DNA of 64,000 nt from an uncultured Candidatus Micrarchaeota archaeon (GCA_903835385.1 CAILMQ010000032.1:5976-69975), one strand, 5' to 3'. Shown: positions 36,302 to 45,999, counted from the stretch's first letter. Made by a program: numbers and translations. The notes: generated by a model from the letters alone, not told the origin.

Positions 36302-36475
36302 GGGCCCGTGGCGCAGCCAGACACGAGTCTCGTGTTCCGAGTTCCGTGTCCTGCAGTGGATAGCGCAGCAGCCCTCTAAGGCCGATTTGGGCCAAGGACA
36401 GCTGATGGTCACGAGTTCAAAAGTGCGGGGGAACTGGAAACAGGAAACCCTGAACTGGATTTCTCGTCGGGCCCG
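36302..36475 (+). tRNA. tRNA-Arg(TCT) with three BHB introns (D-loop, anticodon loop 37/38, T-loop 59/60)
   Basis: Exons give GGGCCCG TG GCGC AGCCTGGATA GCGC A GCAGC CCTCTAA GCTGA TGGTC ACGAG TTCAAAT CTCGT CGGGCCC G. Introns: 36319..36356 (38 nt), 36379..36399 (21 nt) and 36422..36461 (40 nt). Each has a 4-bp central helix flanked by 3-nt bulges. Confidence 0.85.
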
Positions 36476-40716: not shown

Positions 40717-41379
40717 ATGGCGCGTGCGGTAGTGTTCGACTTCGACGGCGTGGTCGTGAAGAGCGAGCCGCTGCACTGCCGGACTTTCAGCGAGACGCTC
40801 GCCCCCCTGGGAATACGCATAGACCGGAGGCGCTGGTACAAGGAGTTCGCAGGCACCGGCTCGCACAGCATAATCGCCCGGCTGCTTGAGGAGAACGGAG
40901 TGAAGGCGGATATCGCTGCGCTCGTGAAATCGCGCAAGGAACGCTTCAGCGCCTGCGTGCGCCGGGGCGGGCTCAGGCCGACCAGGGGGCTTCGCAGGTT
41001 CCTGGCAATGATAAGAAAAAAGGGGATAATGACCGCCATAGCTTCGGGTGGGCACAGGGAGAACATCGAGCTCATATTGGGAAAACTCGGGCTGCTGGGG
41101 CAGTTCGATGCCATTGTCGGCTGCGAAGAGGCGAAGAACAGGAAGCCGCATCCGGAGATTTTCCTGAGAGCCGCGGAGCGGCTAGGGGTGCCTCCCGGCC
41201 AGTGCGTTGCCGTGGAGGACTCCATACCCGGCGCGGAATCGGCGAAAAGGGCGGGCATGGCGCTCGTGTGTTTCGATTCCCCGGCGAGCAAGTTTTTAAA
41301 TAACCCGTGCAGCAGAATGATAAACAGCTTCTCGGAGTTCCCGCTTGAGTTGCTGGATGGTTTCCATGATAAGGCTTGA
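40717..41379 (+). CDS. HAD-superfamily hydrolase (beta-phosphoglucomutase-like subfamily IA)
   Basis: VVFDFDGVVV (motif I), TASGG, K...PE.F and VEDS..G..SA..AGM (motif IV). Confidence 0.8.
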   Translation: MARAVVFDFDGVVVKSEPLHCRTFSETLAPLGIRIDRRRWYKEFAGTGSHSIIARLLEENGVKADIAALVKSRKERFSACVRRGGLRPTRGLRRFLAMIRKKGIMTAIASGGHRENIELILGKLGLLGQFDAIVGCEEAKNRKPHPEIFLRAAERLGVPPGQCVAVEDSIPGAESAKRAGMALVCFDSPASKFLNNPCSRMINSFSEFPLELLDGFHDKA

Positions 41380-42535
41380 GCTGGACCGGAAAAAGCGTTC
41401 CGTGAGCGTAAGGGAGCCGGCCGACGTCTCCTCTCTGCAGAACGGCTTCTACGGCCAGATGAAAAAGGGAGTGATAACGCTTTCGCCCGAGGAATCGCTT
41501 TACATAATGGACATACGGAACGGCAGGTGCTACGACGAAACCGGCAACGCCCTCACTTTCAACGGCCTCGCCTCGCTTTTCCTGAAGCAAAGAAAACTGC
41601 TGGCGCGCTATCTCACCTACAAGGACTGGAGGGACAAGGGGTTGATTGCGCGCGACGCAAGTGAGGCAACCGGCAATTACGGAAGGACGGCTATAAAGAA
41701 GTACACCGGCGGCAAGCTGGAACTGGATGCCTATTCGTTCGAGGGCGTGTTCTTCCCCGACGACCTGCTCACGGTGCTGGACGACGAGGTTGTCGGCAGG
41801 GAGCTATACGAGCGGCACTGGATAGGCCAGTTCGGGACCTACAAGGCCGCCCACAGGGGCAGGATAACCAAGCTCGACATCTACGAGACCGTGTTCCTGA
41901 TGAAGCACGGCGGGCTGCGGCTGGCGAACTCGGACCTCAAAAAGGTGGTTTCCGCGGCCTCCAAGCGCCTAAGGTTTTTCGCTGAGATGTACGAGGTCTA
42001 CGAGGACTGGATGAAGCGCGGCTACGTGGTGAAGAGCGGCTTCAAGTTCGGCACGCACTTCAGGATATATTTCCCCGGCGCCTCGCCCGTGCGGCTGGAG
42101 GCCGACTGGATGCACTCCAAGCACGTGCTCCATGTGTTCCCGCGCCGCGCGAAGATGATAATATCCGAATGGGCGCGCGCCATAAGGGTCGCGCACTCGG
42201 TGAAAAAAACGTTCATACTCGCTATTCCTGGCAAGGCCAGGGCGTCCAAAGCGAAGCGCCCTGTGCTGGACTTCCTCCTCTACCACCGCAAGGACGGCGG
42301 CATCGAGACGCCCAAGGACGGAAGCCCGAAATACCTCATGTACTCTCTTACCGAAGACGAGTACATAGGCGGCGAGGAGCTCGCCGGCGCGCTGGACGAG
42401 TGCAGGAAATTCGGCCTTGAGATGATAATGGCGATATCGGATAGGGAATCGTCGGTCACGCAGTACATGATAAGGCGCATCGCGCTTCCCGGAAGCGATT
42501 ACGAATACTTTGAAATTGAGTGGGTTCAGCCATGA
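41366..42535 (+). CDS. endA: tRNA-splicing endonuclease, long multi-unit form
   Basis: About 390 aa, roughly twice the size of a single EndA unit. Catalytic-unit signature GFKFGTHFRIYFPG...HSKHVLHV...HSVKKTFILA. An N-terminal EndA-like unit (YLTYKDWRDKGLIAR) and an extra C-terminal unit. Start ambiguous (41345, 41357 or 41366). Confidence 0.8.
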   Translation: MIRLELDRKKRSVSVREPADVSSLQNGFYGQMKKGVITLSPEESLYIMDIRNGRCYDETGNALTFNGLASLFLKQRKLLARYLTYKDWRDKGLIARDASEATGNYGRTAIKKYTGGKLELDAYSFEGVFFPDDLLTVLDDEVVGRELYERHWIGQFGTYKAAHRGRITKLDIYETVFLMKHGGLRLANSDLKKVVSAASKRLRFFAEMYEVYEDWMKRGYVVKSGFKFGTHFRIYFPGASPVRLEADWMHSKHVLHVFPRRAKMIISEWARAIRVAHSVKKTFILAIPGKARASKAKRPVLDFLLYHRKDGGIETPKDGSPKYLMYSLTEDEYIGGEELAGALDECRKFGLEMIMAISDRESSVTQYMIRRIALPGSDYEYFEIEWVQP

Positions 42536-43648: not shown

Positions 43649-43660
43649 TTGCGCTTCTTT

Positions 43661-44386
43661 TCACTTTCTTTTCGCGATGCCCCACACGCTCCTGAAAAAT
43701 TCGCGGTATCTCTGTGCTATCTGCCTGGAATGCATAAGATAGCCGACTTCCCGCCCCGGTTCCCAGGAAAAGAAGGCTATTTTGTCGTTGCATATGCTCG
43801 TGTTCGTGGGGATGGGAAAGTCCGGATACCGTATGTCCAGATACTGCCTCCAAGCGAGCGATTTCCTCAGCTCCTTGGGTGCGAGCCCCCGCACGATTAG
43901 CCCCGCGTCATGCCTTTTGCGGTCGTATTTGGAGAAGAACCGCTGGATTTCCTCGTTCTGCTCCTGCGTCGTCGTAACGAAAAAGAGGAACTCGTCGCCT
44001 TTCTTCACGTCTTCTATCAGCAGGTTCATCAGCGTCTTGAGCCCGTTCATGCCCTCGAAAACTTCCGCCTCCTGCCGCTCCCCTGCGGCCCGCTGCATTT
44101 TCTCAAGTTCGGGCAGCACGGTTTCCAGTTTCGCCTTCTTCTCGTTCACGTAATCCAGCATGTGATGGGGCGAAGCCGCGCGGTAAATTTTCATCTTCCC
44201 CTTCTTTATGTAAGAAACCAGCCCCTTGTCAACCAGGGATTTGAGCGCGTTGTGCACTGCCGAACTCGCGATTCCCGCACGCCCGATTATTTGCCCCACC
44301 TTCGTGTTGCCCAGCTGCATCAGCGCCAGGTAGGTTTTTATTTCTCCGGGACTGAGCCCCAGGTCTTCCAGCACGGACGTATCCAT
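43661..44386 (-). CDS. TrmB-family transcriptional regulator
   Basis: LEDLGLSPGEIKTYLALMQLGNTKVGQIIGRAGIASSAVHNALKSLVDKGLV is a winged-helix TrmB N-domain. Confidence 0.8.
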   Translation of the reverse strand: MDTSVLEDLGLSPGEIKTYLALMQLGNTKVGQIIGRAGIASSAVHNALKSLVDKGLVSYIKKGKMKIYRAASPHHMLDYVNEKKAKLETVLPELEKMQRAAGERQEAEVFEGMNGLKTLMNLLIEDVKKGDEFLFFVTTTQEQNEEIQRFFSKYDRKRHDAGLIVRGLAPKELRKSLAWRQYLDIRYPDFPIPTNTSICNDKIAFFSWEPGREVGYLMHSRQIAQRYREFFRSVWGIAKRK

Positions 44387-44490
44387 GATTGCCCTTATGC
44401 GCCATGTTTTTTAATGCTTCCTGAAACTCTCCAAATTTGGAGAGCGATTATTTTTATATAAGCCACGATAGTTGTATTTAGGTGAGGCAT

Positions 44491-45177
44491 ATGGACGAAA
44501 CAAGGAAAGTTGAAACACGGGCAAAAGCACTGAAACCATTGAGAAAGTTTGGCAAAATGCTTGTTGGCTCTGTTTTGGCTGCGGGCATTATGCTAGCTGC
44601 TTCAAAGCCATCCAGAGCGAGTTCAGTTGAATTGATGGCAGGAAACGAGAGGAGTACGTTGGACCTGAAAGCATCGGCTCCTGTTAATGACAAGCTAGGT
44701 GTTTTCATGAGGGCGAGGCCGTCAGTCGATTACAAGGGCGTAATCAGCTCATATGGCCTTGCAGACCTGGTCTTGAACCTAAGCAACGGGCTGGATGCCA
44801 TCAGTGAGGTCCGGGCTTTTGGCGGAAATGTGGTTCCAAGGGCGGGCATGAGATATTCCGCCAAAACAGAAAACGTCAGCTTGTGCACCGTTGCGACAAT
44901 CGGTTTGGATAGCAAACCTTACTTCGAATCGCTTACTCTTTTGGGTTATTTCCCGACGATCTACAAAACCCTGAAACTTTTTGCACAGGTTGAGAATATA
45001 AGCGATGTCAGTGCAACAGGGCATGATTCCAGCAAGCAGAGAATACGGCTTGGAGTGGAGCAGGGCGGGTGGGGAGCCGGAGCTGCAGTGGATCTCACGG
45101 AAACCGGAAACAGCCCGACGATTGCGAATGGAACCTTTGACTGGAATGCCGGGGGCTATGTTTCCAGGAAATTCTGA
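44491..45177 (+). CDS. secreted beta-rich hypothetical protein ending in Phe
   Basis: The ATG at 44491 follows GGTGAGG. TM/signal segment, then alternating hydrophobic strands and a C-terminal ...GGYVSRKF. Lower-GC region. Confidence 0.5.
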   Translation: MDETRKVETRAKALKPLRKFGKMLVGSVLAAGIMLAASKPSRASSVELMAGNERSTLDLKASAPVNDKLGVFMRARPSVDYKGVISSYGLADLVLNLSNGLDAISEVRAFGGNVVPRAGMRYSAKTENVSLCTVATIGLDSKPYFESLTLLGYFPTIYKTLKLFAQVENISDVSATGHDSSKQRIRLGVEQGGWGAGAAVDLTETGNSPTIANGTFDWNAGGYVSRKF

Positions 45178-45841: not shown

Positions 45842-45999
45842 CGGGCCCGACGAGAAATTCAGTTCAGGGTTTCCTGTTTCCAGTTCCCCGGGACATTTGA
45901 ACTCGTGACCTTCGCCTTAGGAGAGCGTCGCTCTATCCATTTCAGGCCTTGGCCTGAAAATCTTGGTCAGCAGACCGAGGCTAGCTGAGCTACGGGCCC
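45842..45999 (-). tRNA. tRNA-Arg(CCT) with two BHB introns (D-loop and T-loop 59/60)
   Basis: Reverse complement exons: GGGCCCG TA GCTC AGCTTGGATA GAGC G ACGCT CTCCTAA GGCGA AGGTC ACGAG TTCAAAT CTCGT CGGGCCC G. Introns at 45940..45982 (43 nt, central helix TCAG/CTGA) and 45856..45895 (40 nt, central helix TTCA/TGAA). Confidence 0.85.

Follow-up and report, generated by a model that had tools for sequence, protein, structure and literature searches.

Near-identical T-loop introns in two tRNA-Arg genes of a Candidatus Micrarchaeota archaeon: a probable recent copy with a dispersed heptamer repeat at its core

Where two tRNA genes of different anticodon carry almost the same intron at the same site, the question arises whether both inherited it, whether one gene received it from the other, or whether similar material entered each gene separately. 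The window analysed here, a stretch of 64,000 nucleotides from an uncultured Candidatus Micrarchaeota archaeon, contains such a pair, namely the genes for tRNA-Arg(UCU) and tRNA-Arg(CCU), which lie in inverted orientation 9.4 kb apart. A preliminary description, made from the sequence of the window, had attributed the similarity of their T-loop introns either to inheritance through duplication of the isoacceptor genes, followed by independent gain, loss or turnover of the other introns, or to transposition of a conserved intron, the core of which might itself be functional. We consider these proposals by comparison with the assembly containing the window (1.29 Mb in 68 contigs, 88.8% complete, such that a reverse transcriptase or a third copy could be absent through incompleteness) and with its relatives. 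Among the latter, G002 (OY970229.1, an uncultured Candidatus Micrarchaeota archaeon) belongs to the same genus and G001 is a more distant congener with ~75% identity in the region of the splicing endonuclease gene endA, the relationships among the three genomes being drawn from nucleotide identities over only a few kilobases. Two metagenomes also enter the comparison: X1, the likely source sample, and X2, an independent peat metagenome.

Gene structures and splicing motifs

The tRNA-Arg(UCU) gene occupies positions 36302-36475 of the plus strand, with exons at 36302-36318, 36357-36378, 36400-36421 and 36462-36475 separated by a D-loop intron of 38 nt (36319-36356), an anticodon-loop intron of 21 nt (36379-36399) and a T-loop intron of 40 nt at position 59/60 (36422-36461; AGTGCGGGGGAACTGGAAACAGGAAACCCTGAACTGGATT). 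The tRNA-Arg(CCU) gene lies on the minus strand at 45842-45999 and comprises, in gene orientation, exons at 45999-45983, 45939-45896 and 45855-45842, interrupted by a D-loop intron of 43 nt (45982-45940) and a T-loop intron, again of 40 nt and at position 59/60 (45895-45856; TGTCCCGGGGAACTGGAAACAGGAAACCCTGAACTGAATT). Both genes have syntenic orthologues in G002. Removal of the T-loop intron leaves GTTCAAATCTCGT in either gene, equal to the intron-less T-loop of the G002 Arg(CCU) gene and of a second Arg(CCU) copy on contig C45 of the assembly, and intron-less D-loops read AGCTTGGATA in the C45 copy and agcctggata in a metagenome contig (L081). Because such intron-less homologues exist, the T-loop, D-loop and anticodon-loop boundaries are fixed more firmly than motif-finding alone would permit. 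The two D-loop introns share a site after exon base 17 and, in agreement with the preliminary description, differ in both length and sequence, their identity of 0.56 being that of the background; the anticodon-loop intron is, as it had also stated, confined to the UCU gene.

Unspliced, both genes escape ARAGORN, which reports 0 tRNAs in the window, and neither is among the Rfam tRNA matches of the genome, the region itself having no match to any Rfam family. With the introns removed in silico, ARAGORN calls tRNA-Arg(tct) and tRNA-Arg(cct), each of 75 nt. The second Arg(CCU) copy (C45:21-146, outside the window) has the same mature sequence as the spliced CCU gene of the window and bears a single 50-nt intron at 37/38 instead. 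Its contig of 1.5 kb has the GC content of the assembly, no duplicate in the bin and a similar depth in X1, and the neighbouring gene on it has no counterpart in G002 and one of 65% identity in G001; this copy may be a true paralogue or may derive from a co-binned strain.

The UCU gene, the sole Arg(UCU) gene found in the assembly, has a C at position 33 (window position 36374; anticodon loop CCTCTAA), where U is nearly universal in tRNAs, and G002, G001 and contigs L080-L082 have CTTCTAA in its place. The C33 forms a C33-G pair in the central bulge-helix-bulge (BHB) helix of the anticodon intron, in a lineage that already has a C35-A mismatch there. A reading of the gene as a tRNA with a CUA (amber) anticodon was rejected, since the CTTCTAA of the orthologues and the BHB register yield UCU with C33.

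Both T-loop introns can adopt the strict hBHBh' motif, in which the 5-bp T-stem is joined to a 4-bp helix between U54-A57 and the UGAA or UGGA of the intron, the two 3-nt bulges contain the splice sites, and an inner GU/AC helix plus stem is formed inside the 4-bp helix. The unconstrained minimum free energy (MFE) fold leaves this helix open, so the BHB structure was evaluated explicitly. In the UCU gene, where UUCA pairs with UGGA and the bulges are AA/A and UU/U, it has -17.6 against an MFE of -20.4 kcal/mol, a difference of 2.8 kcal/mol; in the CCU gene, with UUCA paired to UGAA and bulges AA/U and UU/U, it has -14.8 against -15.1 kcal/mol, a difference of 0.3 kcal/mol. By their predicted folds the two are ordinary archaeal BHB introns. 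Between the two genes, at 41345-42535 on the plus strand, lies the gene for a three-unit (epsilon2-type) tRNA splicing endonuclease, EndA, of 396 aa (Pfam tRNA_int_endo and tRNA_int_endo_N), which matches PDB 4fz2, the epsilon2 EndA of ARMAN-2, over its full length (residues 10-396, E = 2.4e-135). An enzyme of this type cuts both strict and relaxed BHB motifs in vitro, including that of a 59/60 intron (PMC3239211). An EndA of such broad specificity would be expected to excise the present introns, and we infer that they are spliced; no reads of three peat metatranscriptomes from a related study mapped.

Extent and age of the shared intron

The two T-loop introns are identical at 36 of 40 positions (90%) without a gap, which, together with the splice sites, confirms the preliminary claim of near-identical introns at a single site in two Arg genes. 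The similarity extends into the exons, 15 nt upstream and 14 nt downstream of the intron being 100% identical, such that the shared block amounts to 69 nt (exon bases 45-59, the intron and exon bases 60-73), with all 29 exon bases the same and all four differences falling within the intron. Since its flanking exon bases are fully identical, the intron is the least conserved part of the block. The spliced tRNAs differ at 14 positions, all of them in the first 46 nt (70% identity), while the last 29 nt are identical, and the similarity ends immediately beyond the limits of the genes. A divergent 5' part joined to an identical 3' half makes this a segmental copy and not a recent duplication of the whole gene. 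The preliminary description had reserved the latter reading, a very recent simple duplication, for the case that the core of the intron was absent from other tRNAs and from relatives and that exon divergence was equally low; the exact core is indeed absent from both, but exon divergence is zero only in the 3' half and reaches 30% in the 5' 46 nt. The exon identity of the 3' half is not in itself evidence of recency, since it is found also in G002, where no intron is shared.

It is barely conceivable that metagenome assembly collapsed the common 3' half of the two loci or exchanged it between them. As a repeat that exceeds the 31-mer word size, the block does break the public contigs, as such an artefact would lead one to expect, yet the two copies differ at four locus-specific positions, and in short contigs the 5' end of either intron, which is specific to its locus, is joined to the body and flank of its own gene. 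Moreover, the CCU gene complete with its intron lies on a single contig of 1167 nt from the independent sample X2, and it is therefore no assembly chimera.

Within the assembly, a cloverleaf finder written for the search, which tolerates inserts in the loops, recovers 41 tRNA genes with eight 59/60 introns, a census that is incomplete because the finder misses introns in stems; below score 6 it also yields many false positives. Among these eight the Arg(UCU)/Arg(CCU) pair is an outlier at 0.90, the next pair being Phe/Leu at 0.71 and the remainder ranging from 0.30 to 0.64. The pair thus lies above the identity of at least 80%, at the same position and under different anticodons, by which a shared intron family is recognised.

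The orthologues place this sharing in time. The Arg(UCU) gene of G002, syntenic with that of the window (flank identity 86.9%), has a D-loop intron identical at 36 of 38 positions (95%) and a similar anticodon intron, whereas its 59/60 intron (CGTGCGGGCGACCGGTGTCGCCCGGACTGGGAT) is of 33 nt and only 60% identical, with recognisable flanks and a tip that forms a perfect hairpin, GGGCGAC-CGGT-GTCGCCC, without heptamers; a G002-like metagenome contig (L082) carries the same type of 59/60 intron. The Arg(CCU) gene of G002, likewise syntenic (flank identity 77.6%) and identical in mature sequence, has a 37/38 intron only and neither a D-loop nor a T-loop intron. In G001 both Arg genes have 59/60 introns, each ~60% identical to its counterpart in the assembly and 58% identical to the other, and the Arg(CCU) gene (L031, G001:C11) is interrupted by three introns, including two in the D-arm that use sites other than that of the window gene. 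The syntenic Arg(CCU) genes of three species of one genus therefore bear three different intron sets, and of the inheritance model in the preliminary description the homology of the two T-loop introns, as copies at one site, and the independent turnover of the others are supported, while simple descent through duplication, as stated, is not, the orthologous introns being 60% identical or absent and the paralogous ones 90% identical.

On a wider scale, when 99 genomes of the family were scanned by pattern, 26 of them proved to have 59/60 introns in Arg- or Lys-type tRNAs. The Arg(UCU) 59/60 intron occurs in at least ten genera, which indicates that the position is old, and both Arg isoacceptors have 59/60 introns in several genera (labelled g1, g13, g3 and g7). 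In genus g13, by comparison between species, the UCU introns and the CCU introns are conserved to 97-100% each, but within a genome the two are only 45-49% alike. Set beside this control, an identity of 90% within the present assembly, as against 60% at most to the orthologues, calls for a recent exchange between the two genes, and the sharing is younger than speciation, given that the orthologous introns of same-genus genomes are 60% identical or absent. A stretch of ~1.5 kb of the window (43651-45177) is missing from the corresponding syntenic position of G002; it encodes a TrmB-like HTH regulator (43661-44386, minus strand) and an ORF without Pfam match (44482-45177, plus strand).

As regards direction, of the four intron bases by which the UCU gene differs from the CCU gene, three agree with the UCU introns of both G002 and L082, and the other introns of the UCU gene remain orthologous, whereas the entire intron set of the CCU gene differs from that of its G002 orthologue. 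The polarity of these sites, taken with the orthology of the other UCU introns, makes a copy from UCU to CCU the simplest reading. We consider it probable, from these comparisons, that the 90% identity reflects a recent copy between the genes, by DNA-level gene conversion from UCU to CCU, of a derived intron bearing a repeat array. Within this family the 59/60 intron would be long established in tRNA-Arg(UCU), and its apical hairpin would have been taken over by an array of GGAAAC-N heptamers in the lineage of this species; the derived intron would then have been transferred to the corresponding site of tRNA-Arg(CCU), or an intron there homogenised with it, by a gene conversion primed by the identical exon flanks of 15 nt and 14 nt, and four substitutions would have followed, three of them on the CCU copy. 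This direction and this recombination mechanism are the ones that the sequence comparison makes most likely. A different history may apply to the CCU gene: with a 59/60 intron present in Arg(CCU) of G001 too, the CCU gene may have had one ancestrally, with a later loss in G002, and what took place in the present genome would then be a re-homogenisation and not a first gain.

The preference for DNA-level gene conversion has three grounds, the first being the identity of the exon flanks, even though homology of 15 and 14 bp is short for recombination. Secondly, a search of the assembly, 88.8% complete, for an RVT_1 reverse transcriptase found none. Thirdly, a homing endonuclease beside either gene was rejected from the content of the neighbouring genes, which are dehydrogenase-like, UPF0147, PolD-small-subunit-like phosphoesterase, Asn-synthase-like and Mur-ligase-like, together with two ORFs without Pfam match. 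An RNA-level route, in which the excised intron was reverse-spliced into the T-loop of pre-tRNA-Arg(CCU), copied into cDNA and recombined into the gene, appears quite improbable. It would be served by a target site and a BHB-forming exon context that are identical in the two tRNAs, but it is at odds with the failure to find RVT_1, and we know of no demonstration of reverse splicing by EndA and ligase. The mechanism of archaeal tRNA intron transposition is described in review as unknown, which leaves room for such a route, and the same review prefers spread at the level of DNA (PMC4090602).

The heptamer repeat in the intron core

The preliminary description had seen in the shared intron a conserved and possibly functional core of 22 nt, GGGAACTGGAAACAGGAAACCC, folded as a CTG-GAAA-CAG hairpin. 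This core, at 36429-36450 (plus strand) in the UCU gene and 45867-45888 (minus strand) in the CCU gene, occurs exactly twice in the window and in 0 of 100 shuffles, and the suggested search of the genome finds it in the same two introns only across the whole 1.29-Mb assembly, with up to three mismatches allowed. Heptamer arrays of related composition are found more widely. The core consists of three tandem heptamers, GGGGAAC, TGGAAAC and AGGAAAC, followed by degenerate units CCTGAAC and TGRATT (TGGATT in the UCU gene), and its self-match peaks at lags 7 and 14; read as GRRAC-NN, both introns have GGAACTG GAAACAG GAAAC, that is, at least three tandem 7-nt units.

Arrays of at least three GRRAC-NN units number 21 in the assembly, as against 0 for the reversed motif, and they are found also in 5 of 60 relatives, with 14 in one of them (G034) and 0 in the controls. 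They are distributed over intergenic DNA, long ORF spans and tRNA introns. In the assembly, the one genome in which this association was tested, 5 of the 21 arrays fall in tRNA genes, although these account for only 0.38% of the genome, an enrichment of ~60-fold, and each of the five is inside an intron: the anticodon intron of Ser(UGA), the T-loop intron of Ala(UGC) (antisense), the T-loop introns of the Arg(UCU) and Arg(CCU) pair, and the D-loop intron of the same Arg(UCU) gene, where the array GGAACTC GGAACAC GAGAC is antisense (minus strand, 36327-36345; C32:42302-42320). If two units are taken as sufficient for an array, tRNA genes carry 1.42 arrays per kb, compared with 0.076 per kb over the genome as a whole. 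Of 38 T-loop introns from the family, 7 have at least two units, all in sense orientation.

Several further occurrences may be recorded here. The tRNA-Ala(UGC) gene (C16:1220-1417) has a 40-nt T-loop intron composed almost wholly of antisense heptamers (GGTTTCC TGTTTCG GGTTTCC GGTTTCC), as well as a D-loop insert of ~83 nt; the array-bearing sequence at C16:1240 is this T-loop intron and not part of an RNase P RNA. The anticodon-loop intron of the G001 Arg(UCU) gene (L061/L112, G001:C148), of ~150 nt, is rich in heptamer units. A four-unit array (GAAACTG GAAACCC GAAACTG GAAAC) at C12:9952-9977 and C14:423-448 is apparently in frame within an ORF, which reads LRETGNPKLETLFGVGGGHY in part by hand translation, the two contigs having near-identical copies of that gene region; its product may resemble archaeal D-aminoacyl-tRNA deacylase.

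Could the core nonetheless be an old and constrained element, the intron having preceded the duplication that gave rise to the UCU and CCU genes and the core having been kept because the excised, perhaps circular, RNA is functional? The 59/60 introns in both Arg isoacceptors of several genera would allow an old positional homology, and the core does fold as a neat GNRA-capped hairpin. Against this stand the absence of the core from the syntenic UCU orthologues of G002 and L082 and its different form in G001, the mere 45-49% similarity of the paralogous introns in genus g13, a 1-nt indel (GGGGAAAC) inside the core in the independent peat population X2, and the absence of the exact 22-nt sequence from two public collections (genome contigs and metagenome contigs) and from 60 relatives. 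Inheritance under such constraint is largely refuted by the comparison of orthologues and seems highly improbable. A box C/D sRNA is known from the tRNA-Trp intron of Euryarchaeota, an example of a functional intron-encoded sRNA; the present intron was judged to encode no sRNA, of box C/D or any other type, there being no boxes, no Rfam match at E <= 1 and no conservation. The hairpin itself arises because the free bases (T and A) of two adjacent repeat units happen to be complementary. The core is a dispersed, fast-changing heptamer repeat of this lineage that is not conserved in orthologues, and a specific function for it is thus unsupported. The conserved and possibly functional core of the preliminary description accordingly finds no support, and of the transposition that it had offered there survives a recent copy in a loose sense, most simply by gene conversion.

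The same abundance of arrays raises the question whether two related 59/60 introns were independently invaded by one repeat, a convergence that would gain from the enrichment of arrays in the tRNA introns of the assembly and from their recurrence, always in sense orientation, in the T-loop introns of the family. We regard it as unlikely: the free bases of the units (T, A and C) and the number of units are identical in the UCU and CCU genes, the identity extends beyond the array into the 3' tail (CCTGAACTG.ATT) and the 5' CGGGG stem, and the other arrays of the assembly differ from the shared core at no fewer than 3 of 22 positions. A recent copy of one array-bearing intron remains the preferred account.

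A broader conjecture, which we put forward tentatively and hold to be possible though far from probable, is that GGAAAC-N heptamers of Micrarchaeota supply intron material in tRNA genes, where arrays would land in or remodel the tips of BHB introns, the 59/60 site being preferred and the product instantly spliceable, and that the introns then spread by short-homology conversion. Sense units of the form C-TGGA-AAC or C-TGAA-C would carry a TGRA tetramer able to pair with the UUCA of the T-loop and so form the central BHB helix, and spread would take place between tRNA genes with ~15 nt of common flanking exon. Were this to hold, the Arg(UCU)/Arg(CCU) pair would show both steps caught in the act.

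Related intron families and the place of the pair among them

The pair is not the only case of sharing in the assembly, in which the D-loop introns of Arg(CCU) and Lys(UUU) are 81% identical and the T-loop introns of Phe and Leu 71%. The former family, to which the 43-nt D-loop intron of the CCU gene belongs (45940-45982, minus strand), has the form AGCCTTG-hairpin-CAAG-ATTTTCAG-RCAAGGCCTGAAA, always after exon GGGCCYGTAGCTCAGCY, and is found in Lys(UUU) of the assembly (C13:42547-42693), in Lys(CUU) of G042, which is of another family of the order, in Arg(UCU) of G003, of another genus, and in a gene of G011 (loci L030, L032 and L034). Its members are 75-86% identical, with compensatory changes in the hairpin. 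The second T-loop family at 59/60, AGCTTTG..CTGGCG..CAAAATTTGCCAGCAAAGCTGWCAA, is better conserved and occurs in at least seven genera, in Arg(UCG), Arg(UCU), Arg(CCU), Lys(CUU), Phe and Leu genes (among its loci are Phe GAA at C15:23287-23464, Leu CAA at C2:526-693, L084, L087, L100, L101 and L107). It has invariant blocks and, in the first hairpin, four pairs with compensatory changes, and looks like an intron that is either widely spread or structurally constrained.

From the Thermoproteales, similar introns among the various tRNA genes of a genome have been described as 'large-scale tRNA intron transposition' (Fujishima et al. 2010; PMC4033280, PMC4090602). The present pair is like that system in that, within one genome, distinct tRNA genes carry near-identical BHB introns at one position and the sharing is younger than the species. 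It differs in lineage, that of the Micrarchaeota (DPANN), in the endonuclease, which is epsilon2 as against (alpha-beta)2, in that the genes are isoacceptors with identical 3' halves, for which plain gene conversion suffices, and in that the core is a heptamer array. A 2026 preprint on Asgard archaea recognises such sharing by intron families with at least 80% identity between tRNA types, finds them in Thermoproteales and not in Asgard, and gives no general route by which introns arrive.

Closer in phylogeny is ARMAN-2 (Ca. Micrarchaeum acidiphilum), of the same phylum, which has disrupted tRNA genes and an epsilon2 EndA (PMC3239211, PMC3488258). The two organisms have in common many non-canonical and multiple introns, including some at 59/60, and an EndA that corresponds over its full length to 4fz2; the 59/60 example of ARMAN-2 is, however, a 13-nt relaxed hBH, whereas the present introns are of 40 nt and strict hBHBh', and the passages of these papers considered here describe neither intron families common to several tRNA genes nor introns built of repeats. 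For Micrarchaeota, we found no published account of either shared intron families or heptamer repeats. In yeasts, intergenic gene conversion equalises tRNA genes together with their introns (Amstutz 1985, Heyer 1986; PMC4090602), and the likeness consists in a non-reciprocal exchange between dispersed tRNA genes, such that paralogues are more alike than orthologues and introns are carried along. The yeast cases are, in contrast, eukaryotic, and concern many copies of the same isodecoder and whole genes, while here two anticodons and the 3' 69 nt only are involved.

The present case is genuine but fairly ordinary tRNA-intron turnover, a known kind of intron sharing in a new lineage, with the twist that the core of the shared intron is a dispersed heptamer repeat. 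For annotation it means that standard tRNA finders (ARAGORN, Rfam tRNA) again overlook multi-intron genes of this sort. How archaeal tRNA genes gain non-canonical introns is an unresolved matter, the transposition in Thermoproteales having been deduced without a mechanism, and the Arg(UCU)/Arg(CCU) pair adds a small and datable example from a third lineage, the Micrarchaeota, in which a derived intron variant is found in paralogues and not in orthologues. Given that this variant is flanked by identical exons in both genes, gene conversion would be a sufficient route. The pair also ties tRNA introns to a lineage-specific heptamer repeat, and thereby to a testable source of new intron sequence.
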